Positions 864 to 28,182 are shown, counted from the first letter of the stretch. The stretch: 45,507 bases of DNA from a bacterium UBP13_UBA5359 (GCA_002410925.1 DHPR01000033.1:454397-499903), one strand, 5' to 3'. The notes: generated by a model from the letters alone, not told the origin. Made by a program: numbers and translations.

Positions 864-864
864 G

Positions 865-8571: not shown

Positions 8572-8581
8572 GGCACACCCC

Positions 8582-9598: not shown

Positions 9599-9641
9599 AT
9601 TACACCTCGCTTAAAATATAGATACTCCGGTATCTACCGGG

Positions 9642-10295: not shown

Positions 10296-10352
10296 GAAAA
10301 ACACCTCTCTTTATTTATCGGTCTGATTATTCCACGTGGAATAACGCTGTTC

Positions 10353-13367: not shown

Positions 13368-15241
13368 ACCTTCACCCCTTTACTCAGCACCCGGCGGCGC
13401 TTCGGTGCATCCGGCGTCTGTCCGCCGTTCGTCCCGGCCGCCATCCGGGTATTGGCCGCCGCCCGCTTCATCCAGTCAGGCCCCAGTATCTTCAGCGCCG
13501 CCAGCGAATACACCCGGCAATCAAGCGCCTCGTTCCTGGCATGGCTGGTTTTTTTCAGCCACACATGATAAAGCTGGCCCCCGCGCTTGCGCTCGACGCG
13601 CTTCTCGGAGGTCAGCCCCTTGAAGTAATCCGTGCCATAGCCCCGCATCCTGCCGTCAGCCATCTCCGTATCCCGGGGCCAATGGCAGTAAAGCGGCCCT
13701 TCATGCTCCGTCGACAGGCAGGATAACAGGGCATCCTTCGCTTGGTCAGCCCCCACCGGGAAGACAGGAACGTTCCGGGCCTTACCCTGGCGCCTGGCGG
13801 CATCCACTATGGGGTGCCCCGGACCGCCCATGCCCTTGATGGCAAATATATACCGCGGCGTCCTTGGCCGCGTAAAAGCGTAAACCTCGCTGGTGGCAAA
13901 GCCTGAGTCCACCGCCGTGCAGGAGATCGGCAGCACCCTGCCGTCCTCGCGCTTGAAAGTGCCGGACAGGAACTCATCCAGGCTGCGCCACACCGCCGCC
14001 CTGTAAGGATCCCCATGCAGCACCGCATACATAATGCCCCAGCTCTGTGTGCCCTCTCCCCAGCCGACCACCTCAACTTCAAGGCGATCAGCCTGCACAT
14101 CAACACCGGCCGTCAGCAGCAGGACATCGGCAGGAACGTCGGCATCGTAGTAATGGCGCCGCTGCTCCAGGACCTCCTCGCCCAGCTCCTCGCCTTCCTC
14201 TTTCCAGACCTCGGCAAGGCGGGTGTTTATAAAGACCTTCAGGTTCTCAGGATCACCCTGAGCATCCTTCCACTCCTTAATGAGCGTCTCCCAGGGGATC
14301 CAGGGCGATGCCATAGCGTTCAGGTGATAGCCTTTTACATCGGCGACATCGGCCTCCGCAACCCAGCGGCCTTCCCTGGCCTTCCACGCCAGTTCACTGT
14401 GCAGCGTGCCGCAGGCCTCGCAGGCCATTGACACCGTCTCAAAATCCAGCCGGCCCCACTCGTAAGTGTTCAGCTCACCGCATGACGGGCAGGGCACCAT
14501 CCAGCGTTCCTTCGACGAGCGCTCATACTCTGCCGCCACAGTGCTGGTATCGTCCGTAGGCGTTGAGGTCAGCACCGTTTTTCTGTTCCAGAAGTTGCTC
14601 TGGCGCTTCTCCGCCAGTCCCAGCGGAGATCCTTCCTTGCCGGCCGTCTCCGGGTATCTGTCTATCTCATCGGCCAGCAGTGCCCTGGCCGGCCTCGCCG
14701 CCAGACCTACAGGAGAATTTGCCCCCACCATAACGACAAATCCTCCGGGGAAGTATTTCCGGAGGATTGTATTCTCGCTATCCTTGGCCTTTGCCGGCGG
14801 CATGATCTCCGCCAGCACCGGCACATCCCGCAGCATGGGATCCAAACGTTCCTTGCTATAGTCCCTGGCAAGCTGATCCGTCGGCTCCAGCACGATAATC
14901 GTCGAAGGGTCGTTATGGACCACATAGCCGATGATGTTCAAGATCATCTCCGTCTTGCCCACCTGGGCTGAGAACATCAGGACAATCTTCCGCACCAGCG
15001 GGTCCGTATAAGCATCCATCGGCTCCCGAAGGTATGGCGTCCTGTCCGTACTCCACGGCCCGGGCTCGACGGACGTATCCGGCAGGATCCTGTAGCGGTC
15101 CGCCCATTCCGATACCGTCAGCATCGGCGGCGGCGCCACCATGGCTGCCAGAGTATGGACCAGCTCCCGTGTATTCTCCGGGGCAGGCCCCTTATTTACC
15201 GATCCGCTGTCTGCGGGCAGATTTGATTTTCGCTCCATCAT
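13364..15241 (-). CDS. Terminase large subunit (lambda GpA family)
   Basis: SAQVGKTE Walker A, DEIDRYP, STPT, CP.CG, GVDVQ, NEALDC. Confidence 0.97.
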   Translation of the reverse strand: MMERKSNLPADSGSVNKGPAPENTRELVHTLAAMVAPPPMLTVSEWADRYRILPDTSVEPGPWSTDRTPYLREPMDAYTDPLVRKIVLMFSAQVGKTEMILNIIGYVVHNDPSTIIVLEPTDQLARDYSKERLDPMLRDVPVLAEIMPPAKAKDSENTILRKYFPGGFVVMVGANSPVGLAARPARALLADEIDRYPETAGKEGSPLGLAEKRQSNFWNRKTVLTSTPTDDTSTVAAEYERSSKERWMVPCPSCGELNTYEWGRLDFETVSMACEACGTLHSELAWKAREGRWVAEADVADVKGYHLNAMASPWIPWETLIKEWKDAQGDPENLKVFINTRLAEVWKEEGEELGEEVLEQRRHYYDADVPADVLLLTAGVDVQADRLEVEVVGWGEGTQSWGIMYAVLHGDPYRAAVWRSLDEFLSGTFKREDGRVLPISCTAVDSGFATSEVYAFTRPRTPRYIFAIKGMGGPGHPIVDAARRQGKARNVPVFPVGADQAKDALLSCLSTEHEGPLYCHWPRDTEMADGRMRGYGTDYFKGLTSEKRVERKRGGQLYHVWLKKTSHARNEALDCRVYSLAALKILGPDWMKRAAANTRMAAGTNGGQTPDAPKRRRVLSKGVKV

Positions 15242-16022
15242 ACTTGGCCATCTCCGCCAGGGCCGCCGTCGTCTCCCCCTCGATCATCTTCAGGATATCC
15301 CCCGGCTTATCGTAGCCGGTCATATCAGCCAGGCGTTTCGCCAGCTTGGTTCCCACCGCCAGAATGCGGTTACGGAAAGCGATCTGCATATCCCCCAAGG
15401 CCCGGATGATATCCTCCCGGTGGTGCAGCTCCCCTTCACGCTCCAGCCGTTCCAGTTCCGCCAGCTTGGCCTTCTCCTTCTTCTCCAGCGCCTGATACTT
15501 GGAAAAGAGCATCGGCCAGGGCAACGCCATATCCGCTTCGGTAAACTCGGCGCAGATGTTGTCCTTGCCGGCTAACATCTGCTTCAGCCGCAGGGCCGTT
15601 TCCTCGTCAGTCAGATCCTCAGGCCGTTCCCCCGGCAACTCGCCCAGGCGGTTGTTATTATGGGCCGTCCTGGTCATTAAAAAAGCGTCCCGGGCCTCCG
15701 GCCAACGCACCTTATTCTGCGTCACACCGATGCGTCCAGAATCGATCGCCCTGCGAACCGCAGTTTCACTGATATCCATACGCTTGGCAAACTCGCGACG
15801 GCTGATCAATTCAGGCGTTTCGGAGATTTCCGGCAGGCCGCTTTTTTCTCCAGGTGCGAACTGCGAACCAGAAAAACTTTCCACGCCTGCAGAGATTTTG
15901 CGCCTCGCCGCACCCGCCCGCCGGCTTGCCCCGGAAGGACCCGCGGCCTCTGCCTCACTCCCTGGCCGTTTCAGCCCCCGCTTCTGTATCTCCCGATCCA
16001 GTTGTTCCTTCAGGTCCGCCAT
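15192..16022 (-). CDS. Terminase small subunit (Nu1-like wHTH); true start uncertain
   Basis: ISRREFAKRMDISETAVRRAI..GRI HTH, coiled coil AKLAELE...GEL; overlaps terL start. Confidence 0.8.
   Translation of the reverse strand: MADLKEQLDREIQKRGLKRPGSEAEAAGPSGASRRAGAARRKISAGVESFSGSQFAPGEKSGLPEISETPELISRREFAKRMDISETAVRRAIDSGRIGVTQNKVRWPEARDAFLMTRTAHNNNRLGELPGERPEDLTDEETALRLKQMLAGKDNICAEFTEADMALPWPMLFSKYQALEKKEKAKLAELERLEREGELHHREDIIRALGDMQIAFRNRILAVGTKLAKRLADMTGYDKPGDILKMIEGETTAALAEMAKYDGAKIKSARRQRIGK
15900..15942 (-). other. Candidate cos site (cosQ-like GGGTCCT plus cosN-like GTGCGGCGAGGC)
   Basis: Minus strand GGGTCCTTCCGG...GGGTGCGGCGAGGCGC mirrors the lambda cosQ/cosN arrangement just upstream of the TerS HTH. 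Confidence 0.65.
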
Positions 16023-16284
16023 CTACCACATCCAACATCTCCCGCATGGACAGCAATTCATCGTTAGTAAAAGAGGACAGGTCTTCCCCGTCCTCATCGT
16101 TCTCTCCTGGGTTTATATCGGAGAGATAGTGCCATAGTATTTTAAGAGCCGTCGCATTGCCTTTCATTGCCAGCAGGATAGTCGCTTGAACTACAAGTTC
16201 GCCCCAGGTGCGTCCTTCCCGGTCCTTGGGGCTGGCCTTGCCTATCTCATTACGAAGCAGGTCCGCAAGGGACGTCACTCTCAA
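15955..16284 (-). CDS. Small helical protein resembling DUF5681-type terminase small subunit C-terminal part
   Basis: A.KGN..A.K.L and DLSSFTNDEL motifs; TTG start. Confidence 0.5.
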   Translation of the reverse strand: MRVTSLADLLRNEIGKASPKDREGRTWGELVVQATILLAMKGNATALKILWHYLSDINPGENDEDGEDLSSFTNDELLSMREMLDVVDGGPEGTTGSGDTEAGAETARE

Positions 16285-17581
16285 TCACTGCTTTCTTCCC
16301 TGTAAACTGCTCCCAACGTTTTACTATGGCATCGCAATACTTTGGATCAAGCTCTATCGTATAGCAGGATCTTCCCATCTGCTCACAGGCCATGAGTGTG
16401 CTGCCGGATCCGCCAAAGGCATCCAGGACGATGTCGCCCTTCTCGGAATTCTTGCGCAGCGCCCGTTCCGCCAGGCGGACCGGTTTCTGCGTCGGATGAA
16501 TATACTGCGCGGTGTTATCTCGATGCTGATACCAGACGTCGAACAGCTCTTCGAACTGCTCCACAAACGAGGGATAATCCAGGTTGAAGACGTCCTTCAG
16601 ATTGCGTATCGTCGATGAACGGTAGTGCTTATGTCCATCTTTCCAGCCGACCATGCATGGCTCATACATGCGATGGTAATCCTGACCACGGCTGAAGATC
16701 ATATTCTCCTTCAGCCAGATGATAATCTGACTCATATACCAGCGGCTATTCTCCCACGCCTGCCGGTTTAAACTGTTATTCTTGTTGGCAAACCACCAGT
16801 AGATAGTTACATCGTCCGTGCTGTGCTCATACATATTCCATAGCACCCGGCTATAGAACTGCAGGCAGTCATCGTCAGATAGATTGTCGTTGAATATCTG
16901 GCCGCCTGTGCCGCCGTATTTCTCGGAATCGTAATCCAGACCGGCCGGACTACGGTAGTTCACGTTATACGGTGGATCGGTGAAGATCAGCCTGGCCAGT
17001 TGCCCCTGCATCAACCTGGCGTAATCCTCCGGATCTGTAGCATCTCCACAAAGCAACAGATGCTTGCCCAGGATATATAGATCACCAGGCTTCGTTACTG
17101 GCTCCTCGATGGCGGCAACCTCCGCATCGGCATCAAAGCCATCCTCCTGGACCTCCGGCTCATTCCGCATGCCCAGAAGCTCCTCGATCTCACCTTCGGT
17201 ATATCCGGCAATGCCAAGGTCCAGCCCACCGGACTGAAGCTCCTCCAGAACGTCAATCAAGCTACCGCGATCATCCTGCCCCTGCAGCTTGTTAGCGGCC
17301 AGCAGCCGTGCCAGGTGGGTCTCCTCATCGTAATCCACCACAGAAACGTCTGCTTCCTCATATCCTAGATCCAACAACACCTTTACCCGTAAGTGACCAG
17401 ATACCAGTAAGCCGTTCCGGCGGTTCCAGACGATAGGGTCAAAGTAGTCATGCTCGAGCGATAATGCCAGGGATTGCCACTCCGATGTTCCCGGATCCGG
17501 ATGCCGACGAGGGTTCCGTGGGTGCGCTTCTAACTCAGAGAGTCGCTTGCGCTCAATACAAATTGTTGCTGTCTTTGACAT
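16250..17581 (-). CDS. DNA N4/N6 methyltransferase with ParB-like N-terminus
   Basis: NPR...GH.R ParB-like domain; TDPPY, HPTQKP, DAFGGSGST. Confidence 0.95.
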   Translation of the reverse strand: MSKTATICIERKRLSELEAHPRNPRRHPDPGTSEWQSLALSLEHDYFDPIVWNRRNGLLVSGHLRVKVLLDLGYEEADVSVVDYDEETHLARLLAANKLQGQDDRGSLIDVLEELQSGGLDLGIAGYTEGEIEELLGMRNEPEVQEDGFDADAEVAAIEEPVTKPGDLYILGKHLLLCGDATDPEDYARLMQGQLARLIFTDPPYNVNYRSPAGLDYDSEKYGGTGGQIFNDNLSDDDCLQFYSRVLWNMYEHSTDDVTIYWWFANKNNSLNRQAWENSRWYMSQIIIWLKENMIFSRGQDYHRMYEPCMVGWKDGHKHYRSSTIRNLKDVFNLDYPSFVEQFEELFDVWYQHRDNTAQYIHPTQKPVRLAERALRKNSEKGDIVLDAFGGSGSTLMACEQMGRSCYTIELDPKYCDAIVKRWEQFTGKKAVIESDVPCGPAS

Positions 17582-17808
17582 ACGATCATCTCCAAAACAA
17601 GCCTACCAATCTGGCCGTTATGCACCTTTGCATGGCATTCAAAACATAAGTTTATGAGATTATCCTCTACATCACTCCCACGAGCTCCTCGGCTACGGAT
17701 ATGATGGACATGAAACGTCGTATTCACCCTCTGGCAGTGTTCACAGTAGTTACGCCGAGCAGCCTCTATGTTCTTTCTACTGCGATATGTTTTAGGTTTA
17801 GGTATCAT
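17530..17808 (-). CDS. HNH endonuclease (packaging-associated)
   Basis: CEHC...HHI..RG..G....NL..LC..CH..VH. Confidence 0.9.
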   Translation of the reverse strand: MIPKPKTYRSRKNIEAARRNYCEHCQRVNTTFHVHHIRSRGARGSDVEDNLINLCFECHAKVHNGQIGRLVLEMIVCQRQQQFVLSASDSLS

Positions 17809-17817
17809 TCATCCAAC

Positions 17818-17851
17818 CAAAACAAAACCGCCCGAGGTTTCCCCGGACGGC
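17818..17851 (-). terminator. Rho-independent terminator-like hairpin at the early/late boundary
   Basis: GCCGTCCGGGG-AAA-CCTCGGGCGGT followed by TTTGTTTT. Confidence 0.6.
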
Positions 17852-17909
17852 TTCAGACACTTCTTGTTTTAATTTTACGCTTGTCAAGTATTAACTTGTT
17901 TTCAAAATA

Positions 17910-18158
17910 TCACTTACCCTTAGGCTTGTCAAGCATTCGCCTGGCAGCTTCAAAGAATTCTTCTCTCCGACGCTGTAACCGTCGCAGTCTTGAGATATCA
18001 GTTGCTATTGCCCGTTGATTATCCAAATACTCTTCCCACTCTTTCCCGGTAGGCTGCTTATCGTCTCCCTTTAACGGGATGGGACATATAGCAGTGCCCT
18101 TACATCGAGCCCTATCATACCCACCACATCCGGAACAGTTGTCGCATGCCTTCCTCAC
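17910..18158 (-). CDS. Small Cys-rich hypothetical protein
   Basis: GTG start after GGAGG; CDNCSGC...C....C; basic C-terminal helix. Confidence 0.6.
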   Translation of the reverse strand: MRKACDNCSGCGGYDRARCKGTAICPIPLKGDDKQPTGKEWEEYLDNQRAIATDISRLRRLQRRREEFFEAARRMLDKPKGK

Positions 18159-18162
18159 AAAC

Positions 18163-18369
18163 CTACCTCCAACGCAATAATCCCCATATAGCCAAGAGCA
18201 GATATACTGCAAACAAAACAGCCTGAGCATAGAGCCCACGGCCGAAATCAATGATGCACCATATAGCATTTGTTACCAGCCAGATAACAAAGCAGATCCT
18301 CTTCTGGTAGATATTTAAAACAACTCCTGCGATCGATAAGCCGGTTACTGCCCAATGCCAGTTATCCAT
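18163..18369 (-). CDS. Half-size PnuC-like (nicotinamide riboside transporter-like) membrane protein
   Basis: 68 aa, three hydrophobic helices, W...N and Y....WG...W motifs. Confidence 0.7.
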   Translation of the reverse strand: MDNWHWAVTGLSIAGVVLNIYQKRICFVIWLVTNAIWCIIDFGRGLYAQAVLFAVYLLLAIWGLLRWR

Positions 18370-18372
18370 ACT

Positions 18373-18594
18373 TTACTCCTCTATCAAAGGGCAAAATTCG
18401 CACTTGTCGTGACCGGGCAATATATCGTCCGGGTTATATCCTAAGCCCTGGCAGATTTTAGAAGACACGCCAGAGCCATGAGCAAAGATATCTTTTACCG
18501 CAGACCAGCGCAACTGATCTTTGCCAGTTGTCACCGGATGCTTTACGACATGCTCAACGAGGTCACGGCAATCGAAACTCTCAATACCGTCTAT
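18373..18594 (-). CDS. Hypothetical protein, possible ATA start (not in ORF track)
   Basis: Open frame exactly fills the gap: IDGIESFDCRDLVEHVVKHPVTTGKDQLRWSAVKDIFAHGSGVSSKICQGLGYNPDD... Confidence 0.45.
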   Translation of the reverse strand: MDGIESFDCRDLVEHVVKHPVTTGKDQLRWSAVKDIFAHGSGVSSKICQGLGYNPDDILPGHDKCEFCPLIEE

Positions 18595-19424
18595 ACGTAG
18601 CCTCGCCCGTGCTCCTGCAAGCTCCTCCTCATGCTCTCACCGGAGATCTGCAGCAGACGTCCGCCCTCTCTCCAGCGATCTATGATCCGGCCGATGGTAT
18701 TGTCCTCCATCTGCTCTACTGTCAGATTGGCGGTTATGATCATGGGCTGCATGTTGGCATACTTGGCCTCTACCAGCTCCTCGAACCGGCTGAAAAGCCA
18801 GTCTGCCCGGTATTCCCGTCCGAAGTCGTCCAGCAGCAGCATATCCGCTTTTTCGTATTCGCTGATATCGTCCTTGTCATGGATCTTCCGGAAGAGCGTC
18901 GGCGAAAAAACATACTTGGTCCGCAGCCGCTGCCTATGCCCCCACCAGAGCCGCTGGTAAAGATAACTGAGCGTGAAGGTCTTGCCGACGCCAGGAGGGC
19001 CAACTATCACCAGGCCGCTGCCCCTCTCGAGGTTTGCATCCAGATCATCCAGATAGGCGTCGATCGTCTCTTTAAGCTGGAGCCTTGAAGGATCCACCTG
19101 GTGATATCGCTTCCGTATGCCGGATGCCAACAGACTGCGTGTCAGCATATGCAGGTTATACGGGCACTCTCGGCTGTCGCTGAAGTGACAAGGGTACCGA
19201 AAGACGTGGCCAGGCTCCTCATCCAGCGTCAGAAGTATCTCCGGATCCGTAAGGGCAGCTCCTCTACGTGCCGCTTTCAGGCACTGCCGGCACTGGATCT
19301 GAGCGTCCCCAATTTTTAACTTCTCCAGTAAACCCGAAAGCGTCCCGTGATGCCGGCGGTGAATACTTGCCCGAGCTGCCAAGTCCGCTTTTAACTGCTC
19401 CAGATCCCCGCTTATTCGTTCCAT
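18591..19424 (-). CDS. DnaC/IstB-like helicase loader ATPase
   Basis: GPPGVGKT, LLLDDFG, IITAN, RIIDR; N-terminal Cys pairs. Confidence 0.92.
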   Translation of the reverse strand: MERISGDLEQLKADLAARASIHRRHHGTLSGLLEKLKIGDAQIQCRQCLKAARRGAALTDPEILLTLDEEPGHVFRYPCHFSDSRECPYNLHMLTRSLLASGIRKRYHQVDPSRLQLKETIDAYLDDLDANLERGSGLVIVGPPGVGKTFTLSYLYQRLWWGHRQRLRTKYVFSPTLFRKIHDKDDISEYEKADMLLLDDFGREYRADWLFSRFEELVEAKYANMQPMIITANLTVEQMEDNTIGRIIDRWREGGRLLQISGESMRRSLQEHGRGYV

Positions 19425-20376
19425 TCTGCCCACCCCCGTTTACAATCGCCAGTAGCTTCGTTACCGTTGCCGATGAATAAAGCTTGTTCAGTGCATGACC
19501 TTCGTAAAATTTATCGTCATCGATGGCCAGGTAGGCATCCACCAATGCCTTGCACTTCTCCATCCCGTAGTTCTTGACCAGTCTGGCCAGGTGCACGAAA
19601 TCCTGCCCCCCTCCCGGAGGCCTGTCCTCGGTCTCGTAACGCCTCTGCCATCCAACGACAAAGTATTCGAACAGCTCTGCTTGTGGGGAAGACGGGACAG
19701 GCGTTAGCCTGGCCTTCTTGGGCGGCTTGCTGGGAAGAACTTCCGGTTCAAGAGATTCCGTTCCTGCTTCCCCTTCCCTTTCTTCTTCCCCTTCTACTTC
19801 TCTTTCTATTTGGTTCTCGTACGGTAACCCTACGGTATCAGTATCATCACCGTTCGATATTCGTACGGTAACCGTACGGTTGGCATACGGTTTTCCTTCG
19901 GTATCCGTAAGCTGTATATACGGTTCCAAATGCAGCAGAAACTCCTTGTATTCGTCGATGACAATAAGCTCATACCGTCCTGGACCAGGACGCTTACCCG
20001 GTTCACTCGGTGCAGGAGGAATCCATCTGATCCACGGCGGCAGCAAGGCGTCCTTAGGTGCAGACGGGCTTCGAAGCCGCTGATGCTTGAAGAAGTTCTT
20101 CAGGAAGAAAAACTTCTTGCCGCTTACCTCGTAGGGAATAATCTTGCCCAGGTTTATCAGCGCCTCGATATATCCTGATATGTCCGCCACGGCAATGTCA
20201 TTATCTGCCGGGAAAAGATGAATCTTGAACCCCATCGGATTATGCTCTACGCAGCCGGAATCCTCTGCCGCCTGAATCATCCCCAAATAGAACATCCTGC
20301 CAGGTAACGGTAGGGCGTCTATCAGATCAGTATCAGACCAAAATTCAGGAACTATCACCCGCTTATGAACGATCAT
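19264..20376 (-). CDS. Phage replication initiator / replisome organizer
   Basis: KR.I.PEFWSD, A.D.G, NFFKHQ N-terminus; upstream of DnaC-like gene; contains iterons. Confidence 0.85.
   Translation of the reverse strand: MIVHKRVIVPEFWSDTDLIDALPLPGRMFYLGMIQAAEDSGCVEHNPMGFKIHLFPADNDIAVADISGYIEALINLGKIIPYEVSGKKFFFLKNFFKHQRLRSPSAPKDALLPPWIRWIPPAPSEPGKRPGPGRYELIVIDEYKEFLLHLEPYIQLTDTEGKPYANRTVTVRISNGDDTDTVGLPYENQIEREVEGEEEREGEAGTESLEPEVLPSKPPKKARLTPVPSSPQAELFEYFVVGWQRRYETEDRPPGGGQDFVHLARLVKNYGMEKCKALVDAYLAIDDDKFYEGHALNKLYSSATVTKLLAIVNGGGQNGTNKRGSGAVKSGLGSSGKYSPPASRDAFGFTGEVKNWGRSDPVPAVPESGT
19817..19924. repeat. 11-bp-phased TACGGT iteron array (putative phage ori)
   Basis: TACGGT at 19820, 19831, 19864, 19875, 19886, 19919 and TTCGGT at 19897, all in 11-bp register. 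Confidence 0.75.
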
Positions 20377-20513
20377 CTATCAGCCTCACATACCGTCGTT
20401 ACCGTGTTACCTGCAGGCTTGATCCATGGAGGATCAGGAACAAATGTTCCAATCACGTAAAGGGCCACCATAACGCCGATAAAAAATAGAGTCCCCGCCA
20501 TTCGATCACTCAT
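20373..20513 (-). CDS. Small single-TM protein
   Basis: MSDRMAGTLFFIGVMVALYVIGTFV; overlaps initiator start. Confidence 0.5.
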   Translation of the reverse strand: MSDRMAGTLFFIGVMVALYVIGTFVPDPPWIKPAGNTVTTVCEADR

Positions 20514-20518
20514 TATAA

Positions 20519-20920
20519 TCACCGTCCCCCTCGCTTGAGTTGCTTCTCGACCGTCTCCTTGGCCGATGTCATGAACTTTGCGGCTGTGCAGATAGTGCAA
20601 TCATCTCGATACTTACGGCACATCCTCTCATAGCACCGACGTCTGTTTTTATCAAACTCATCTGCCATCTCATAGAGTGCTGCCTTGTATACCCTGATCC
20701 ATACCTTCAGGCGCTTGATCACCACGTCGCTCTCACAGCTTCGACACTTACCATCTGCCGGCATCGGCCGGTGACACTCAGGGCATTCCAGAAAGCGGAG
20801 TTCATCCAGGTCCTTACCCTGCTCCTCCAACAGCCGCTTATACTCATCCCTCTCCCGCGCTGCAGCCAACAAGCGCTTGTGCTCCAGGGCGGAAAGATTA
20901 ATCCTCCTCAATCTCAACAC
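20519..20920 (-). CDS. Hypothetical protein with zinc-ribbon motif
   Basis: CPEC...CRSC flanked by coiled coil. Confidence 0.6.
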   Translation of the reverse strand: MLRLRRINLSALEHKRLLAAARERDEYKRLLEEQGKDLDELRFLECPECHRPMPADGKCRSCESDVVIKRLKVWIRVYKAALYEMADEFDKNRRRCYERMCRKYRDDCTICTAAKFMTSAKETVEKQLKRGGR

Positions 20921-21161
20921 CCTTCTCTCGTAAGCCCTGAATCCACAACGCCTTCATCTCATCGCTACAGTGAGCCATGGCATCTTTCCACGTAGGGCAG
21001 CGCCCATGCTCCATATGGAACTTCATCTGGTAATACAGGCTCTGCTGGTTGTGAGGCATCGATGGATGATGGTCTGTTGCACACTCTTGACATACATCAG
21101 GGTGTGGCGGCAGTAATGTCATTGACTTGCATTCTATGACTTGAACTTCTCTCTTCGGCAT
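20898..21161 (-). CDS. Small Cys/His hypothetical protein
   Basis: CQECATDH...PH...PTW.DAMAHC; RBS GAGAGGAG. Confidence 0.7.
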   Translation of the reverse strand: MPKREVQVIECKSMTLLPPHPDVCQECATDHHPSMPHNQQSLYYQMKFHMEHGRCPTWKDAMAHCSDEMKALWIQGLREKGVEIEED

Positions 21162-21186
21162 AATAATATCTCCTCTCGTTTTGTAG

Positions 21187-21331
21187 GGTAAGGGAGCGGA
21201 CCGGACGCTACCCCGGCTTGCAATTAACTGCCCTACTACCCCTAGTCAGGCTTTGCCTACAGCAGCACGGAGGGGTCTTTCGGCCGTGCCCGGTGTCTGC
21301 GACTTTCCACACCGCCGCTCCCACGTTGGCC
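21187..21331 (-). ncRNA. Candidate structured RNA element A (tRNA-like fold)
   Basis: Closing stem GGGAGCGG/CCGCTCCC; arms CGGTGT/ACACCG, GCACGG/CCGTGC, GCCGG/CCGGT. Confidence 0.55.
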
Positions 21332-21333
21332 TC

Positions 21334-21600
21334 TTACCACCTGTGTTCGAATTTATCGTTCCAGGTAGGATTACGGTCCTCCAATTGAGGCTTGAATACC
21401 AGGTGTTTACAGGAAACATAACCGCTGATCCCCTGCACAAAAACGACGGGGTCTCCACTGCTGGCCATAAATGCTTCCGATTTCAACAGCGTACGCTTCC
21501 CGTCCTCATGTATACCGAGTATCGGGAAATAGGCGCACTCCTCGCCTACAGGATGGTCGTTGTTCCATGCAGTAATATCAAAGGTAGACCCTCTTCTCAT
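21334..21600 (-). CDS. Hypothetical protein flanked by the two structured elements
   Basis: MRRGSTFDITAWN...; RBS GAGAGGAG. Confidence 0.7.
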   Translation of the reverse strand: MRRGSTFDITAWNNDHPVGEECAYFPILGIHEDGKRTLLKSEAFMASSGDPVVFVQGISGYVSCKHLVFKPQLEDRNPTWNDKFEHRW

Positions 21601-21627
21601 ATCTGTAACTCCTCTCAAACTTAGTTG

Positions 21628-21733
21628 TGGTAAGGGAGCAGGGCGGCGATCACCATACCCAAGACTGTTTCCACCGCCATTCAGCCGTCCTCTTTAAGGG
21701 TGTGCTGCAATTCGTTCTGCTCCCATGTTGGCC
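21628..21733 (-). ncRNA. Candidate structured RNA element B
   Basis: Same flanks as A with compensatory change (GGGAGCAG/CTGCTCCC); ends TTACCA. Confidence 0.5.
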
Positions 21734-21887
21734 GCCGCCAGTAGCAGGGTTTTACCATTGGGGATGGTAGAGTTACGCTACTATGGTAAAGCGGCAGCCG
21801 TGCTACTTCTCCGGTCTCCCGGGAAGACTGTTGTTCTCAAGCTCCTCGATGTGCTAAAATAAGACTGTTGAGTTTCTGAGCCCCTTG

Positions 21888-22328
21888 CTATGCCTGGCAG
21901 GGGCTCGTTTCTTTTCCCGGCCTATTCTCCAGTATCCGGTTTCTGGTCCGCAGCTCCTCCACTTCCTGCAGCCCTTGCCTATGTGCCCTCTCAATGGCCA
22001 TGACCGCATCATATTTGAGCTGGTCATCACGCAGATCTGCATCATAGGCTTTCTTTAAGTTAGCTATATGGATCTCCAGGTTACGCCTATTCTCCGGATC
22101 CGTAGTTGTCTCCAGGTAATCTTCCAGAGACTTAATTACCAGTCTCTGCGGCTCGTTATCAGCCAGATCCATCTCCAGGTTGTGCCTGGAATACTTTTTC
22201 AGGGCTCCCAGCCTCTCGATCTCCTCCAACAACGTAGACTGCACCTCCATGTTCTCCCGGATATCAGCCGATCGCTGGCTCTCAGGACGCCCTCTCATTG
22301 GCAATGTCATCGTGTCCATCCGTATCAC
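21888..22328 (-). CDS. Hypothetical coiled-coil protein
   Basis: 146-aa ORF coupled to the clamp gene, RBS GGAGG. Confidence 0.65.
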   Translation of the reverse strand: MIRMDTMTLPMRGRPESQRSADIRENMEVQSTLLEEIERLGALKKYSRHNLEMDLADNEPQRLVIKSLEDYLETTTDPENRRNLEIHIANLKKAYDADLRDDQLKYDAVMAIERAHRQGLQEVEELRTRNRILENRPGKETSPCQA

Positions 22329-23422
22329 CTCCCTTCCTGCTGTCTAATTGGCATTACGAAACAGTATCCATAATCTCCATCCCGGAGCATGGCAACCTTA
22401 TTAGGTTCGCATAGACGAAAAACCACTTCTTTGGATTTAACGTGGCTTATTATGTCTGTCAGGTAACTGACGTTGAAATAAAAGGCCTCTTGTAGATCAT
22501 TAACAGGAGTGACAAGCGGTATTGCCTCTACCATCCTGCCAAAATCAACATCCGTAGTGGAGATTACAACCTCATCGGAGAATGTCAGGCGGACTACACG
22601 CGTATCCTGGTCGCATATTGCAGCAGCGCCAAGGAGAGCACGTAACAAAGGCCACCGTTTGACTGTAATATGCTGTTTGAATCCTTCTGCCGGCGCGATC
22701 CTCTGATAATCTGGATACCCACGGTCTATAGGATTACAGGCTATGCCTATGTTACCGGAGGTAAAGGTAACCTCCTTCAATGGATCATCACCAACGATAG
22801 CCCGTATAGTTGCCTGGCCTAAACTCGACACCTCCGTCAGCACATTGCGATGAATGGTAAATGCAACAGGAACGGAAAGAGGAAAATCATAGCATGCCAA
22901 GCGCTGCCCGTTTGTGGCTACTATCGCCTCCCCTGAGAACCTTATTCCCTGCAAAGCGATATTCTTTACTTCATCAGAAGCAGCGGCATATATTACACGT
23001 GAAATAATATCGGCGTTGATCTCTCCAATGGCCGGAGTTGCAAACCCCGGCATGAAATCATGCTGCATCTCGATATCTACATGCGGAAGAGCATATTCGC
23101 ACCCGTCAGAGGATAGGATAATCTCCTTAGCGTTGCTGTCGGTATCACATGGTCCTGAGATAGAGACCGTCTTTTCAAACGCCTTCAGGACATTATCCAT
23201 CTTTTTACCTGTGACGGTTACGAAACCTTCTTCTTCGATCGCTGCATCAGGTATCCTTACAACAGTCCTAAAATGCTTTCCCTCGGCATATACGGACACG
23301 CTGCCATAGCCGGCATGTATCACTATGCATTCATCGGCTGGTTTATCAGGATACACGGGCAAAGCTCTCCTTGCCTGTGATACTGCAGCACGTAACTTCC
23401 GTGGATTAACAGTGATCTTCAT
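22325..23422 (-). CDS. dnaN: Phage-encoded DNA polymerase III beta sliding clamp homologue
   Basis: 365 aa; L.GI, ATNGQRLA, YPDY.RI.P, FN..YL.D, VMPIR C-terminus. Confidence 0.9.
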   Translation of the reverse strand: MKITVNPRKLRAAVSQARRALPVYPDKPADECIVIHAGYGSVSVYAEGKHFRTVVRIPDAAIEEEGFVTVTGKKMDNVLKAFEKTVSISGPCDTDSNAKEIILSSDGCEYALPHVDIEMQHDFMPGFATPAIGEINADIISRVIYAAASDEVKNIALQGIRFSGEAIVATNGQRLACYDFPLSVPVAFTIHRNVLTEVSSLGQATIRAIVGDDPLKEVTFTSGNIGIACNPIDRGYPDYQRIAPAEGFKQHITVKRWPLLRALLGAAAICDQDTRVVRLTFSDEVVISTTDVDFGRMVEAIPLVTPVNDLQEAFYFNVSYLTDIISHVKSKEVVFRLCEPNKVAMLRDGDYGYCFVMPIRQQEGR

Positions 23423-23444
23423 ACGTTAACTTCCCCCCCTGGAT

Positions 23445-24071
23445 TTATATACTGGCCTGCCGGATCTGGCGGTTGATCTTTGAGATAGCCATATCTATAA
23501 CCCGTTGATCTTCCGGAAGATCGGCTGAATTCAGAACATTACGCTCGAACTTCTCCAACTCTCTCAACGTCACCCGGCCCGTACCGGCAGGATGCACATC
23601 CGGCGAAGGCATAGTCTCAGAGCGAATAAATGACACCACCAGGTTACCGCTCCGGACCGTATGCATCTCCAGACTATTCCTCTGCCGCAGAGCATCTCCA
23701 AGCTGCCGTCCGATACAAGCGTGAATGCACTCCTCGCAATGTGCTGCAAATGCCTGTGCTGCATGGGTAACTGCTGCCAAGGATCTCTCCCAACCGGCAT
23801 CCGTTTCCTGCTGCGTCAAAGACGTCGCCACCATCAGGGCTTCGTGAAGTGAGAACCCATCGATGCCATCTCCGGATGATAGGATCACCTCCATCCGCTG
23901 CCTCACATGATAGGCGGCAATCGTTTTCAGCTCCCTCTCGGTCCGGCATCGATTGTTAAAGGGGCATACCCCCTCCGTGTCACAATACCTGCTCCCGATG
24001 TTGGTATCCGTTCCCGGGCAATGCTGTGACTCTCTCTCCACCGCTGTTACCTGACAAGACATAATGATCAC
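23445..24071 (-). CDS. Hypothetical protein (Cys-rich N-terminus)
   Basis: 208-aa ORF in early operon with RBS GAGAGG. Confidence 0.6.
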   Translation of the reverse strand: MIIMSCQVTAVERESQHCPGTDTNIGSRYCDTEGVCPFNNRCRTERELKTIAAYHVRQRMEVILSSGDGIDGFSLHEALMVATSLTQQETDAGWERSLAAVTHAAQAFAAHCEECIHACIGRQLGDALRQRNSLEMHTVRSGNLVVSFIRSETMPSPDVHPAGTGRVTLRELEKFERNVLNSADLPEDQRVIDMAISKINRQIRQASI

Positions 24072-24084
24072 CTCTCTCAGTAAT

Positions 24085-24375
24085 CTATCTACGAGCCGCT
24101 GTCCTGGGTGCCCGCGGCCGAAGCATCGTAGTGCTATCAGTCATATATGCGCTGGGAACTTTGGTCTTATCGATGATGGATAGATTTATGCTCTGAGCGG
24201 TGCCTCTCCGGACGTTTGCTGCTACCCATTGCTCCAGATCGTATTGCCGGAAACGTAGCTGCTTTATCAGCCGGACAAACGGAAGGCCATGCTTTACCAG
24301 GCGACGCACAGTGCTGGGACTGGTCTGGAAGAATTCTGCAGCTTCTTCGATGGTGAGCAATCTCTCCTTAGGCAT
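24085..24375 (-). CDS. Excisionase-like HTH DNA-binding protein
   Basis: LLTIEEAAEFF..S.STVRRL...GLP..R....RF...DL..W; start after AGGAGG. Confidence 0.85.
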   Translation of the reverse strand: MPKERLLTIEEAAEFFQTSPSTVRRLVKHGLPFVRLIKQLRFRQYDLEQWVAANVRRGTAQSINLSIIDKTKVPSAYMTDSTTMLRPRAPRTAARR

Positions 24376-24598
24376 TGGATGCCTCCTTATCCTGTGCCGG
24401 TAGCGTCCAGCGTCGTGCCTCCAGTCCGAAGCGCATAAACCAGAGACACAGCGTTCCAACGTTCACTTCAAAGAGGTCTGCCAGTTGTTGCATGGTCATA
24501 CCGTCTTCGTAGTAGTAGCGCCGGATAAGCTCCTCAATCGGCTTACCGCCATACCGAGCTTCTATTGCTTTCATGGTCTTGGTCTTTTTCTTAATCAT
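24368..24598 (-). CDS. Cro-like HTH regulator
   Basis: GMTMQQLADLFEVNVGTL..W; divergent from cI. Confidence 0.75.
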   Translation of the reverse strand: MIKKKTKTMKAIEARYGGKPIEELIRRYYYEDGMTMQQLADLFEVNVGTLCLWFMRFGLEARRWTLPAQDKEASNA

Positions 24599-24616
24599 TA
24601 CTGTAAGACACCGCCC

Positions 24617-24752
24617 ACATTTCAATTTGGCACTATATAGATAAAAAAATAAGCGATTGCTTAATCGACACTTAGACAATAACAAATTGAAATGTAAAAG
24701 TCAAATGATTTTTAAAACATCTTTTCAAAATGTGTTAATATTTTAGTATAGT
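24617..24752. promoter_or_regulatory. Lysis/lysogeny switch: divergent promoters and operator-like repeats
   Basis: Leftward TTGACT-17-TATTGT (24704-24676); rightward TTCAAA-17-TATAGT (24724-24752); 13-bp inverted repeat at 24617-24629/24683-24695. Confidence 0.65.
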
Positions 24753-24781
24753 TAGTTACTTAGCGTAAGGTAGGGTTTGCG

Positions 24782-25573
24782 ATGACCGATAGTATGTATA
24801 AATTAATAGGCAGTAGAATCAGACAAGCTCGTGAAGAACGTGGACTGAGCCAGGCTGATCTCGCCGAAGCTATCGGTTTTTCTGCACCGTCTGTAACAAA
24901 CTTCGAAAATGCAAAACGGAGAATATCCATAGAAGACCTCCATAAAGTAGCAGAAGTACTTCGTAAACCTATAACCTATTTTCTATCCGAGAAACCTTTC
25001 GATGAAAAAGCACAAGCTGAACTTGAAAAGAAGGCCACCCTCGAAGAGATCAAGGATATGCTTAAAAAGATTGAGGTGGAAGAAGATCAGATCGAGGAAA
25101 AGGTCGAAGAGTGTGCCGAGAAAGAGTTTGACATCACCAAACACCCCGGCTATATCCCTCTCGATAAGTTCAAGCTCATACCAATCCTCGGCCGGATCCA
25201 TGCCGGCGAACTGCACGAAGCTATCCAGCACGCCGAAGAGATGTTGCCTATACCTGCTAGCGCTGATGCTGATTACGCATTAACGGTCCATGGTGACTCC
25301 ATGGAACCATATTACAACGATGGCGATGTCGTAGTTGTTAAAGAGACCCCAGAAGCCTACAACGGCGCTCACGTCGTTGCTAGTGTGGATGATGAAGTAA
25401 CCCTTAAAACCTATTACAAATATGACGGCGTCACCGTTCTGCGAGCCGCCAACCCTAAATACCAGGACATCTCCGGCAAGGAGATCGGCGTCATGGGCGT
25501 TATTAAAGGCGTTATGTATAGGGCGTTGATGCGGCCCTCTTCTGAGATAAACGGGAAACCCAAGAAGCATTAG
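24782..25573 (+). CDS. CI-like repressor (HTH plus S24 autopeptidase)
   Basis: HTH_3 N-terminus; Ala-Gly site (RIHAG), GDSM Ser, TLK Lys. Confidence 0.95.
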   Translation: MTDSMYKLIGSRIRQAREERGLSQADLAEAIGFSAPSVTNFENAKRRISIEDLHKVAEVLRKPITYFLSEKPFDEKAQAELEKKATLEEIKDMLKKIEVEEDQIEEKVEECAEKEFDITKHPGYIPLDKFKLIPILGRIHAGELHEAIQHAEEMLPIPASADADYALTVHGDSMEPYYNDGDVVVVKETPEAYNGAHVVASVDDEVTLKTYYKYDGVTVLRAANPKYQDISGKEIGVMGVIKGVMYRALMRPSSEINGKPKKH

Positions 25574-25582
25574 GAGAGTGAT

Positions 25583-26869
25583 ATGTTTGAATTCCTTATA
25601 GTAGATTGCCTTGGTATCATGTTCGGCCTTTCTCTTATCTGCATCATAATTGGAAATAAAAACCCAGATGTCATTAGCACATGGTTTGAAAAAGGATTCC
25701 AACAAACACTTACTAGAGGCGAGATCCTTTTTATACACATTTGCTTAGGCTCCATCTCCTTCTTTATCCTCTTTTTTAAGCTCGGGAACATCGGTAAGGT
25801 AATAGCTATAGTGATTTCAGCCGTAGTTATACCGCTATCATTAGCATTCAATAACAAAAAGAGAGCAAGAGTAGAACAAGAGCCATGCATCCCCCGTATC
25901 ACTGGTGACAATGTAATCGCCACCGATAAAGAAGCCATTGAGGCATACCTGCAGACTGCTGCCGAAAAGGGTAAAGCAGTCACGGTTCTATATTACGGAG
26001 GCAGCCAGCCCGGAACAAAACGACAACTAATTCCTACAACAGTAGTTAACCACTGGAGAATCCATGCCCGGGATTTAGCATCTGATATGGAGAAAACTTT
26101 CTTGATCGAGAGAATGCAAATTGTAACCGAAGATTACCCAGCGCCCGAGTATATTGCAGAGCCTGAGAACACAGGCAAAGCTGAAAATAATCTGAGATCA
26201 TATTTTAAAATTCAAGGTACCGGCCGGGACACCGGGCGAAAGCGTAAACATGTTTACACTGCATGGAACGAAGAACATGCTAGAGCTCTGGCTGATGCTG
26301 ACGGCACAATAGTTGATAGCATTACTCAAATACCTCATGATCCGCCTACAGAACGTCAACTTGCCTACGCCAGGCATCTCCGCATTAAAATACCGGAAGA
26401 CGCCATAAAGGAAGAAGTAACGGATCTGATATCTGTCCATGAGGATAAAGACGAACCTTCATCGGAGATAGAAAGGTCTTACGCGAAAAAACATGAAGCA
26501 AGATTTACCAGATTCACCGGTAAAAAATGGATTTATAATAATATTTTTTATGCTCTCTGCAGAGAAGGAAAAGAGCAGGATCTCGTTTCCTGGTTTGCAT
26601 ATCATGTGTGTATAGATATCGTGGGCCGCAAGAAAGAGAATCCCATTGATAACCCGGACCACCCCACAATCAGAGAGATTGCATCAGTGTTATCAGCAGA
26701 TCCTTCCGTTATAAAATCGATTTGCCGGTATTCCGGGGAAGATATTATTCGGTTTGGAGAATGGACTGATCGCGAAGGACGGACTCATACTGGAGGCAGC
26801 AGGAAGACTATTGCATATAAAACGATAGCCGAAGCACTTAAGGAAAGACTAAACAAAGTATACGCCTGA
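25583..26869 (+). CDS. Membrane protein with WYL-like domain (lysogeny-module accessory gene)
   Basis: Three N-terminal hydrophobic helices; V.V.YYGGSQPG.KR...P......A.D.....KTF..ERM; PTERQLAYA domain. Confidence 0.7.
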   Translation: MFEFLIVDCLGIMFGLSLICIIIGNKNPDVISTWFEKGFQQTLTRGEILFIHICLGSISFFILFFKLGNIGKVIAIVISAVVIPLSLAFNNKKRARVEQEPCIPRITGDNVIATDKEAIEAYLQTAAEKGKAVTVLYYGGSQPGTKRQLIPTTVVNHWRIHARDLASDMEKTFLIERMQIVTEDYPAPEYIAEPENTGKAENNLRSYFKIQGTGRDTGRKRKHVYTAWNEEHARALADADGTIVDSITQIPHDPPTERQLAYARHLRIKIPEDAIKEEVTDLISVHEDKDEPSSEIERSYAKKHEARFTRFTGKKWIYNNIFYALCREGKEQDLVSWFAYHVCIDIVGRKKENPIDNPDHPTIREIASVLSADPSVIKSICRYSGEDIIRFGEWTDREGRTHTGGSRKTIAYKTIAEALKERLNKVYA

Positions 26870-26908
26870 AAATGATCGTCTACGTATACCGAAGGACAGA
26901 AGATACCT

Positions 26909-28102
26909 ATGAGACGCAGAGACAATAACGAAGGCGGCCTGACCTATGATGACACTAGGAAACGATGGGTAATCACCGCAACAACACTCGACGGCCGCCG
27001 TATATATAAATACCGTAAAGACCGCGACAAGAAGGATCGTGATACAGCTAAGGAGATCCTGCGCCAGCTCCTCGATGCCGTCAACGCCAACGACACCTCC
27101 TCCGGACAAACGCTCCAGGAGTATATAAACTATTGGTTCAGTGAGATTGCATCAAAGAAGCTGCGTCCATTGACGCTACAGCGCTATAAAGGCGTAATTG
27201 AGATATACATTCTGCCGGCACTGGGCGATTTGCTGATCGATAAGGTCACACCGGATCAGGTCCAGACCATGCTCAATAATATAGACCAGGCTCCGGGAAC
27301 TGTGCGCTATGTCCGCGCCGTCCTCTCCTCTGCCCTTGCAGAAGCCGTTAAACGGGGCAAGCTGGACCGTAACGTCGCTCAGATGGTAACCGTGCCTCGT
27401 ATCCCCTTCAAAGAGACCACATACCTTGATGTGAGGCAATCACGACGCTTCATAAGGGCAGCACGCACCCATAGCCTGGACGCACTCTTCTGCCTTGGTA
27501 TTGGCGTAGGGCTGCGCTTGGGCGAAGCCCTGGGCCTGCGCTGGTGTGATGTGGATTTCCGATCCGGCACCATCAAGGTCGTGCAGACACTACAGAACAT
27601 CGGCAATGAACGCGTCATCGGAGAAACAAAAACAGGCCGCAGCCGGCGCACTCTTCCTCTACCAAAGTTCTGTAAAGAGGCGCTTCAACGTCGCCGCGAT
27701 AGCCTGGCTGTAAAGCCCGCAGATGATGACCTTGTGTTCCTGACCTCTGCCGGCACGTCATACAACGCCAACAACGTCCTGCGCGCGCTCAGGAGCGTTT
27801 TAAAGACCGCTAAGCTTCCCAAGATACGTTTCCACGATTTACGGCATTCCTGCGCCTCTCTGCTGCTTGCACTGGGTGAGAGCCAGCGGCTGATAATGGC
27901 TATACTCGGCCACAGCAGCATCGGTGTTTCCATGAATACTTACAGCCATGTTATGCCGGCATTAGAGAACGAGGCCATGAATAAACTGCATGATACACTA
28001 AGCAAAGAGCCGCTAAAATGCAGGCTTTTAAAGCGAACTGTTGTCCTAACTGTTGTCCCAAAACAAAAAACGGGCTCCGGTAAAACTCCGGAACCCGCAT
28101 AA
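26909..28102 (+). CDS. int: Tyrosine integrase
   Basis: GLRLGEALGLRW, KT, FHDLRHS, LGHS, YSH catalytic motifs. Confidence 0.97.
   Translation: MRRRDNNEGGLTYDDTRKRWVITATTLDGRRIYKYRKDRDKKDRDTAKEILRQLLDAVNANDTSSGQTLQEYINYWFSEIASKKLRPLTLQRYKGVIEIYILPALGDLLIDKVTPDQVQTMLNNIDQAPGTVRYVRAVLSSALAEAVKRGKLDRNVAQMVTVPRIPFKETTYLDVRQSRRFIRAARTHSLDALFCLGIGVGLRLGEALGLRWCDVDFRSGTIKVVQTLQNIGNERVIGETKTGRSRRTLPLPKFCKEALQRRRDSLAVKPADDDLVFLTSAGTSYNANNVLRALRSVLKTAKLPKIRFHDLRHSCASLLLALGESQRLIMAILGHSSIGVSMNTYSHVMPALENEAMNKLHDTLSKEPLKCRLLKRTVVLTVVPKQKTGSGKTPEPA
28036..28058. repeat. Tandem direct repeat, probable integrase arm-type sites
   Basis: AACTGTTGTCC x2 with 12-bp period, about 50 bp from the tRNA 3' end. Confidence 0.65.
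28060..28097 (-). terminator. Terminator downstream of tRNA-Thr (phage-supplied)
   Basis: CGGGTTCCGG/CCGGAGCCCG hairpin followed by TTTTTTGTTTT on minus strand. Confidence 0.75.
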
Positions 28103-28106: not shown

Positions 28107-28182
28107 TGGAGCCGACGAGCGGGATTGAACCGCTGACCTACGCATTACGAGTGCGTCGCTCTACCAGCTGAGCTACGTCGGC
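28107..28182 (-). tRNA. tRNA-Thr(CGT), prophage attachment site
   Basis: Full cloverleaf GCCGACG...ACGCA-CTCGTAA-TGCGT...GGTTCAATCC...CCA. Confidence 0.97.

Follow-up and report, generated by a model that had tools for sequence, protein, structure and literature searches.

A prophage early operon in the bacterium UBP13_UBA5359 (GCA_002410925.1) contains two non-coding elements, A and B, which lie on either side of a small gene. Their ends are alike and their interiors differ, raising the question of what kind of element they are and what they do for the genes beside them. An earlier note on this DNA had described them as covarying structured elements, one of them tRNA-like, and had proposed processed small RNAs, tRNA mimics or decoys, or a repeated leader that makes each unit of element, ribosome-binding site and gene an exchangeable cassette. 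We analyzed the elements in the whole stretch of 45,507 nt, hereafter called the window, and in public genomes, viral contigs and metagenome runs.

Two non-coding elements share a frame in a phage early operon

The window contains a prophage whose only integrase is a phage-type tyrosine integrase beside a tRNA, one of three tRNAs in the window (at 28107, 29404 and 38889; ARAGORN and Rfam). Its minus-strand early operon encodes, in order, an HTH protein, a 208-aa protein, the sliding clamp and a 146-aa protein, followed by B, an 88-aa protein, A, an 87-aa protein, two more small proteins, the replication initiator and a DnaC-like loader; a DNA methylase lies further on. A and B are the only long non-coding gaps confirmed in this otherwise tightly packed operon, and the stop codon of the 88-aa gene lies 2 nt before A. 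Any element of a tight operon sits between a stop codon and the next Shine-Dalgarno (SD) sequence, so this position alone says little. Scanning for promoters gave none on the minus strand from the 146-aa gene to A, and both elements are probably transcribed within the early operon.

The frame common to A and B consists of a 9-nt 5' flank, an 8-bp closing stem (P1) and a 3' TTACC (Table 1). Its consensus is a 5' CAACRU, the closing helix GGGAGCRG/CYGCUCCC and a 3' UUACC, followed by an A-rich spacer and a strong SD. One pair of P1 is G-C in A and A-U in B. When all coordinates were re-read, the shared flank, the 8-bp stem, the TTACC and this compensatory change proved to be correct as first reported, as did the ribosome-binding site and small gene after each element; the SD, GAGAGGAG, lies 8 nt before the ATG in both units. 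In the window, the 15-nt 5' pattern with 0 mismatches and the 11-nt 3' block with up to 1 mismatch each occur at just these two places. With up to 3 mismatches, the 5' pattern had 9 matches against 2.83 expected, a number reached in 1 of 100 shuffles. No further copy beyond A and B was found in the whole 2.25-Mb genome.

The interiors of A and B are no more alike than shuffled sequences (local alignment score 14 against a shuffled mean of 13.98, equalled or exceeded in 253 of 500 shuffles). The motif AATTGCA, to which attention had been drawn, is indeed shared by both; it is at chance level and is missing from a third copy, C, described below. Because the two interiors are unrelated, the motif carries no weight, and we rejected it as a shared feature. 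Two coding explanations were also discarded. A leader peptide could start at the ATG or GTG found at the junction of flank and P1 in A, B and C, yet an SD-like run precedes this junction in A only, the peptides differ among the three copies, no conserved small ORF could be defined from these start codons, and by our own reading the flank letters of two related metagenome contigs (X7 and X9, see below) have no ATG. Read-through of the stop codon of the 88-aa gene, after which the frame stays open for ~42 codons, had no other support.

Table 1. Coordinates of the features discussed, in the window unless another contig is named.
Feature	Position	Strand	Remarks
Tyrosine integrase	26909-28102	+	Adjoins tRNA-Thr 28107-28182
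CI-like S24 repressor	24782-25573	+	Faces the minus-strand promoter-like site
Promoter-like site, divergent	24704-24676	-	From promoter scan
Sliding clamp	22325-23422	-	
146-aa gene	21888-22328	-	Upstream of the 154-nt non-coding stretch preceding B
Closed domain U (predicted)	21730-21799	-	Directly upstream of B; closing stem GGCTGCC/GGCGGCC
Element B	21733-21628	-	5' flank, P1, 75-nt interior, 3' TTACCA; covariance model R1, 143 bits
B 5' flank GGCCAACAT	21733-21725	-	
B P1 5' strand GGGAGCAG	21724-21717	-	SD-like; pairs with CTGCTCCC
B P2 (CAGC/GCTG) enclosing P2b (CCTT/GAGG) (predicted)	21682-21707	-	P2 pair A-U in B, G-C in C
B P3 hairpin (predicted)	21642-21678	-	Abuts P1 3' strand; 23-nt loop, two positions unlike C
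B P1 3' strand CTGCTCCC	21641-21634	-	Anti-SD-like
B 3' TTACCA	21633-21628	-	
SD GAGAGGAG of 88-aa gene	21616-21609	-	12 nt after TTACC in B; ATG 21600
88-aa gene	21334-21600	-	Bracketed by B and A; phrog_19503, function not assigned to family
Element A	21331-21187	-	Same flanks and P1 as B; interior 115 nt
A 5' flank GGCCAACGT	21331-21323	-	
A P1 5' strand GGGAGCGG	21322-21315	-	Pairs with CCGCTCCC
A terminal hairpin (predicted)	21200-21217	-	Abuts P1 3' strand; same position as P3 of B and C
A P1 3' strand CCGCTCCC	21199-21192	-	
A 3' TTACC	21191-21187	-	
SD GAGAGGAG of 87-aa gene	21177-21170	-	9 nt after TTACC in A; ATG 21161
87-aa Cys/His-rich gene	20898-21161	-	Downstream of A; without family match
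Replication initiator	19264-20376	-	
Strong intrinsic terminator	about 17850-17819	-	Further down the operon, same direction
Copy C	L183 2036-2119		After SSB stop codon and a small hairpin, before SD of 115-aa gene

A mosaic third copy in a sister-species prophage

The host phylum is represented by three genomes in the collection that we searched. In a BLAST search of 60 other genomes plus the source genome, the sole match was copy C, in a prophage of the sister species. The gene upstream of C encodes an SSB (phrog_44, E 7e-48), and the 115-aa gene downstream has no assigned function. The interior of C is of the B type, with 81% identity over 73 nt (alignment score 63 against a shuffled mean of 13, as high in 0 of 500 shuffles), and its 3' leader, from P3 through the SD, is of the A type, with 91% identity over 35 nt. 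C is the sole DNA or tblastx similarity between the 7.5-kb contig L183 and the 45.5-kb window. Since it joins a B-like interior to an A-like leader in an unrelated gene context, C is a mosaic of the window copies, putatively produced by recombination. The genes that follow the three copies differ as well (88 aa after B, 87 aa after A and an unrelated 115 aa after C). The proposal of a repeated leader forming an exchangeable cassette thus gained support from the pairing of a B-type interior with an A-type leader and SD ahead of an unrelated gene, and also from the B core with differing flanks, broken off at the foot of P1, described in the next section.

A covariance model built from B and C (R1) detected B at 143 bits and C at 115.5 bits in the three genomes of the phylum and nothing further; A scored 6.3 bits. 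A both-ends pattern in a collection of 185,579 species genomes returned 35 stretches, of which C was the one real copy, and a 3'-anchored pattern fitting A, B and C returned 10 stretches from JGI metagenomes, one of them real, on a contig of the same phage in an ENA fermentation metagenome; these patterns required the frame, and differently flanked copies would escape them. Four patterns searched in IMG/VR, one of them independent of the flanks, found the same phage (IMGVR_UViG_3300029822_001161) and two chance matches. A 14-mer from the P3 loop occurred in at least 119 stretches of viral contigs, and among the 80 examined the same phage was the only real case. BLAST of GenBank phages with B and A gave no real copy, the matches being 26-37 nt long (E 0.04-0.5) and nearly all inside protein genes, and searches for the locus anchored on the clamp and on the 88-aa protein retrieved the same phage only. 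All scans of the collections together thus yielded this phage and C, and the distribution of the module is narrow.

The B core recurs between different flanks

Public sequencing runs also contained the element. All of the stretch, or about half of it, is present in four runs of one study, of which two are flagged as a possible source of the assembly and the remaining two lack independence from it. The B core was further found in three other metagenome runs (X5, X7 and X9) with 0-2 differences over the 30-89 nt covered per contig, the parts of the stretch not covered there being uninformative. In X7, a DNA run from a bioreactor, a 493-nt contig carries 21635-21723, that is P1 to P1, with 1 difference, and both flanks are unlike the window. 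In X9, an RNA library of bioreactor sludge from another study, a 209-nt contig with a depth of 30.6 carries the same 89 nt in like manner; its origin in an RNA library does not prove transcription. X5, a landfill DNA run, contains the window's own junction of B with its gene, together with two further flank contexts for the 3' part of the core. The sequence shared with these contigs starts at 21635-21637 and stops at 21723, at the foot of P1.

The upstream flanks in X7 and X9 share the same 30 letters, which align with the T arm and acceptor 3' strand of the tRNAs of the source genome; the core starts 5 nt after this tRNA-like sequence. The 30 letters were not found in viral contigs, and a search of the three genomes of the phylum that allowed up to 3 mismatches did not find a 25-letter part of them; the source genome has 40 assembled tRNAs, without tRNA-Ile(GAT) and tRNA-Ala(TGC). 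On the 3' side, the X7 flank resembles the leader of A and C, with an A-rich run followed by a purine-rich SD-like run, and such SD-like runs occur in both X5 contexts as well. The 3' flank in X9 contains a 15-nt motif identical to the 5' region of the 23S rRNA of one reference genome, which may reflect a chimera of assembly or library, or else a genuine spacer of an rRNA operon; no 16S or 23S rRNA is assembled in any of the three genomes of the phylum. Two other similarities were set aside as weak, a 40-nt match with 5 differences in a deep X5 contig and a 60-nt match with 9 differences in X7 (22237-22296). Judged from these alignments, P1 delimits the B core as a discrete unit, which is nearly invariant across samples and occurs in at least four flank contexts.

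Predicted folds of the interiors

In B, P1 is predicted to enclose an arm formed by P2 and P2b and the P3 hairpin, which abuts the 3' strand of P1, giving a three-way junction or a pseudoknot. In A, P1 is predicted to close around four hairpins, the last of which likewise abuts the P1 3' strand. The closing stem of domain U, upstream of B, uses the GGCC of B's 5' flank. A and B form closed, separate domains in the MFE and centroid structures of a 761-nt transcript, and folding is more favorable for the sense strand than for the antisense strand, by 1.3-6.3 kcal/mol. Folding z-scores were 0.04 (A) and -1.62 (B) with flanks, and -1.23 (A), -2.85 (B) and -1.41 (C) from P1 to P1; the computed folding-energy signal alone is weak.

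In the alignment of B and C, 91% of the cells of 23 proposed pairs are paired, versus 40-58% when the partners were slid by 1-3 columns. Two changes on both sides of a pair were counted, one in P1 and one in P2, each from A-U to G-C. A third, in P3 (GGCGG/CCGCC versus GCCGG/CCGGC; G-C to C-G), was read by eye after one gap had been shifted. The differences between B and C lie mainly in loops or preserve pairing. The covariation in these two sequences is not above that of shuffles (136 of 500), and with so few copies it has no statistical support. The designation 'covarying' is therefore correct but thinly supported, A and B differing by one compensatory pair and B and C by the two that were counted.

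RNAalifold offered an alternative, a long-range helix between a conserved CACACCC stretch and the P3-loop stretch GGGTATGGTG, with one both-sides change. By our own reading, this helix together with P3 would make a pseudoknot, and the data favour neither it nor the P2/P3 fold. Complementarity of GGTGATC in the P3 loop to the 16S 3' end was noticed post hoc and left unsupported. Pairing of a loop GGGTA with TACCC of the 3' flank, another post hoc observation, was rejected as sterically unlikely in A.

The two strands of P1 read GGGAG and CUCCC. When the 5' strand was removed, the predicted folds of all three copies paired the 3' strand with the SD, and the predicted probability that the SD is unpaired fell from 0.50 to 0.16 in A, from 0.68 to 0.13 in B and from 0.44 to 0.31 in C. 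In full context, P1 was predicted to form and the SD to be largely open. These models suggest that P1 and the SD compete for the CUCCC strand; because P1 is predicted to be stable, no switching is evident. The SD-like run in X7 has no GGAG by our own reading of the flank letters, so pairing with the anti-SD strand would be weaker there and may not be a conserved feature.

A portable structured leader as the favored reading

A and B are a real, undescribed structured module with one frame and two interiors, whose function is putative. We tentatively favor a portable cis-acting structured leader of the early transcript, which would insulate or process the downstream ribosome-binding site and double as a recombination joint; we regard this reading as quite possible, if short of probable. 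A and B would then be two copies of a non-coding module in which a fixed frame encloses a self-folding RNA domain, of two unrelated kinds, and which acts in cis at the RNA level. The closed domain would separate the downstream cistron from anything upstream, and the closing helix would lock the CUCCC strand away from the SD, leaving the ribosome-binding site open. The foot of P1 would be a likely processing point, so that the transcript of the small downstream gene would begin with a protected and structured 5' end. Being repeated, the frame could serve as a joint for recombining module and SD before different genes. The common frame, conserved helices, sharp borders and differing gene contexts all argue for a module, and its orientation is that of the neighboring genes wherever genes are readable (A, B and C).

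Structures of comparable position are familiar. The early RNase III sites of phage T7 and the cggR-gapA site of Bacillus lie between cistrons, just upstream of the next ribosome-binding site, and the stability and translation of the cistron that follows are attributed to them. They are long irregular hairpins or simple stem-loops, whereas A and B are predicted to be multi-branched and closed by 8 bp.

The B interior is so conserved (1 difference in 89 nt, and two changes in the P3 loop relative to C) that it suggests a specific task. A mere insulator would need no such conservation, which keeps alive the readings as small RNA, as sensor or ribozyme and as antitermination signal considered below.

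Comparison with known RNA classes and a possible small RNA

The tRNA likeness ascribed to A, and with it a tRNA mimic, found no support from detectors. ARAGORN at its default predicted 0 genes in 21100-21900 and in copy C, and Rfam 15 at gathering thresholds matched three tRNAs elsewhere in the window and nothing on A or B. With ARAGORN thresholds at 80%, no call overlapped A or B; at 70%, they were spanned by implausible calls only (long introns or tmRNA-like models), and the loosest setting gave one weak call clipping the 3' end of A. We read these relaxed calls as noise. In an Rfam search of 20800-22000 at E up to 10, no family was found, the best overlapping match reaching 14.5 bits against a threshold of 50, and the riboswitch, ribozyme, C4, tmRNA and sRNA families had no match on A or B. 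The geometry also departs from that of a tRNA: P1 has 8 bp instead of 7 and is followed by two bases before ACC, and the hairpin beside P1, with 5-7 bp and a loop of 6 or 23 nt, shows no T-loop motif. No promoter-like or terminator-like minus-strand site was found inside A or B by scanning. Taken together, A and B are neither tRNAs nor members of any Rfam family.

Some hints of a tRNA mimic are left, and they bear on the reading of A and B as stable small RNAs that would be excised by tRNA-type processing and act in trans as regulators or decoys. RNase P would cut at the 5' foot of P1 and trimming would stop at the 3' ACC, so that the frame is a maturation signal and the interior the working part. 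All three copies have a hairpin directly against the 3' strand of P1, much as a T arm stacks on the acceptor stem, and a U before the first G of P1, as RNase P preferences would have it. An ACC lies 1-6 nt past P1 in six of seven contexts whose flanks otherwise differ (A, B, C, X7 and both of X5), X9 being the exception. The tRNA-like 3' end that immediately precedes the core in X7 and X9, the very strong conservation of the B interior and the depth of the RNA-library contig point the same way. Against these stand the silence of ARAGORN and of the Rfam tRNA, tmRNA and C4 models, the two extra bases between P1 and ACC, which make a coaxial stack of 13-15 bp rather than 12, and the missing T-loop motif. 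Moreover, the 3' leader and SD are conserved together with the domain in A, C and X7, which fits a cis leader better than a free RNA. We consider such a trans-acting RNA unlikely, though far from negligible.

Two known groups of phage RNA invite comparison here. P4 CI and P1/P7 C4 (Rfam RF01695) are small RNAs matured by RNase P from early or immunity transcripts, some with tRNA-like end traits; A and B differ in having no Rfam match and no identified antisense target, and in being tied to a downstream SD. The tRNA cluster of phage T4 includes the stable RNAs species 1 and 2, of unassigned function, which in placement resemble X7 and X9 as non-tRNA structured RNAs right after a tRNA-like gene; in the window, by contrast, A and B lie among protein genes and not in a tRNA cluster.

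A possible role at the DNA level

The module might instead work as DNA, as a recombination linker, as a miniature mobile element with 8-bp inverted ends that shuffles cassettes, or as a single-strand hairpin site in phage replication. The 8-bp terminal inverted repeat GGGAGCRG/CYGCTCCC around unrelated interiors would suit such an element, as would the sharp borders with differing flanks in other runs. C is the sole shared sequence of two otherwise unrelated replication modules, and in both prophages the copies lie among replication genes (SSB, clamp, initiator, helicase loader). A MITE, however, would be expected to show a target-site duplication and many host copies. None of the former is visible in the flanks, and the source genome has two copies, both in the prophage and none in the host chromosome, with none in the second genome of the phylum and one in the third. 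The orientation matches that of the flanking genes in A, B and C, interior helices are kept by compensatory changes, with G-U pairs that would be mismatches on the other strand, and at 13-17 nt the blocks in common are short for homologous recombination. A DNA-level role thus seems rather unlikely.

Integron attC sites likewise have conserved paired ends and a variable, sometimes branched interior, and lie between promoterless gene cassettes; their outer boxes read RYYYAAC and GTTRRRY. The outer boxes of A and B are not complementary, the 5' GGCCAAC having no GTTRRRY counterpart after the 3' strand, and the integrase of the prophage is of the phage tyrosine type. An insertion of the IS200/IS605 type beside TTAC was rejected for its wrong side and architecture. 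A TAGCGT motif, like that of plasmid single-strand origins, was noticed post hoc in A and U and is absent from B and C.

The nearest precedent for a DNA role, and for the recombination joint of the favored reading, is the promoter-early stem-loops (PeSL) of T4-type phages, which comprise a sigma-70 promoter and a terminator hairpin (Arbiol et al. 2010, PMC2839356). They are reported to be short repeated non-coding cassettes that flank small unassigned genes of the early region, and their copies recombine, shuffling genes (PMC2839356). The mosaic C and the differing flanks in other runs would fit such recombination joints, with no recombinant junction or mini-circle seen. Unlike PeSLs, A and B have no promoter or terminator match; what is repeated in them is a frame, which surrounds a large, branched and conserved interior and includes the SD of the gene that follows.

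Less probable explanations

The interiors could instead be sensors or catalysts, either two different ligand- or factor-binding domains on a shared SD/anti-SD switch or paired, undescribed self-cleaving ribozymes. The GGGAG/CUCCC strands and the predicted pairing of the 3' strand with the SD when the 5' strand is missing (A, B and C) would provide the switch. The junction and P3 loop are nearly identical in B and C, the alternative helix contains a both-sides change, and two different structured RNAs flank one small gene, just as known ribozymes often occur in pairs bracketing genes in phages. On the other hand, no riboswitch or ribozyme family matched at E up to 10, the GC-rich P1 is predicted to be constitutive, and the anti-SD complementarity is weaker in the X7 flank by our own reading. 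We find this proposal improbable.

Functionless relics, decayed from tRNA-linked sequence or from a local duplication and held similar through gene conversion, would account for the very narrow distribution in all collection scans (this phage and one sister-species prophage), for the weak thermodynamic signal and for the likeness between the 5' flank and the terminal part of the tRNA-like sequence that precedes the core in X7 and X9. They would not be expected to leave a B core nearly identical in contigs of three further studies with differing flanks, differences between B and C that are mainly in loops or pair-preserving, or the only confirmed long non-coding gaps in a tightly packed operon, and we hold them to be quite improbable.

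Processive antitermination signals of the put or nut/boxA kind, causing read-through of the downstream intrinsic terminator, are very improbable: two copies do lie in one early operon upstream of that terminator, a scan of 16 early-region proteins recognised none like N or Q, and 9 of 13 positions of the P1 3' strand and its flank agree with the rrn boxA consensus, from which that of the host may differ, but these boxA-like letters are buried inside P1, a distance of 3 kb separates the elements from the promoter, C follows an SSB gene in a different module, and the unrelated interiors of A and B are unlikely to bind one target.

Significance

A bolder view goes beyond the portable cis-acting leader that we favor, and we put it forward as a doubtful speculation. 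A and B might belong to undescribed 'framed' phage RNAs, in which a fixed processing-and-translation frame (a tRNA-like foot, a closing helix that mimics the SD and opposes it, an ACC tail and the SD) carries interchangeable domains as plug-in cassettes of the phages of a barely sampled phylum, the domains being new sensors, ribozymes or decoys released or switched beside tRNA-type processing sites.

The design is unusual, with one frame and interchangeable folded interiors, in phages of a phylum with three genomes in the collection. The 0-2 letter changes in the B core across several studies, between flanks that differ, suggest a specific molecular task. If the favored reading is true, the module, which may process, stabilize and insulate the RNA that follows it, would be a natural portable insulator and leader for phage accessory genes and a compact RNA part. 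It would also provide a new case for the ways in which phage early operons adjust the expression of small accessory genes and swap such genes.

Sequence features around the framed elements

Directly upstream of B, one of the two framed non-coding elements of the early operon, we found a third closed domain, designated U. Its closing stem pairs GGCTGCC with GGCGGCC and is followed by AACA. U is the size of a tRNA, yet ARAGORN made no call for it on the minus strand, and the domain was not seen in other sequencing runs.

Element A, the other framed element, is crossed by a GTG frame of 38 codons, which is preceded by an SD-like AAGAGG and lies in frame with the 88-aa gene between B and A. The corresponding frames in B and in C, the third copy of the framed element, from a sister-species prophage, comprise only 9–10 codons and have no SD.

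Overlapping the end of the 146-aa gene, at its stop codon, is a hairpin with a terminator-like score on the plus strand only; this hairpin may act as a stop for antisense transcription. Further down the early operon, a strong intrinsic terminator (a GC hairpin with a T run) lies among genes of its own direction; those beyond it would need read-through or a promoter of their own.

Features of the prophage region
Feature	Position	Strand	Remarks
428-aa gene	25583-26869	+	weak WYL-domain match; between repressor and integrase
U	21730-21799	-	about 70 nt
Hairpin	21875-21905		
GTG frame	21208-21324	-	
Intrinsic terminator	17819-17852	-	3' of gene ending near 17910; 5' of HNH-endonuclease-like gene and methylase

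Genomic context of the prophage

The host phylum is represented in the collection by three genomes (G000, to which the window belongs, G001 and G002), none of which has an assembled 16S or 23S rRNA. tRNA-Ile(GAT) and tRNA-Ala(TGC) are missing from the G000 assembly, as expected if both sit in an unassembled rRNA operon.

GC content is 57–63% in the presumed late prophage region (window 1-16000) versus 45–54% in the early region (16000-28000), and 41–53% in the flanking host DNA. By this measure, the phage looks like a mosaic. The 428-aa gene occupies the usual site of prophage cargo or defence genes.

In a groundwater sequencing run (X6), a 252-nt contig matches the 146-aa gene at window positions 22022-22273 with 7 differences, indicating that a relative of the prophage exists in another habitat.
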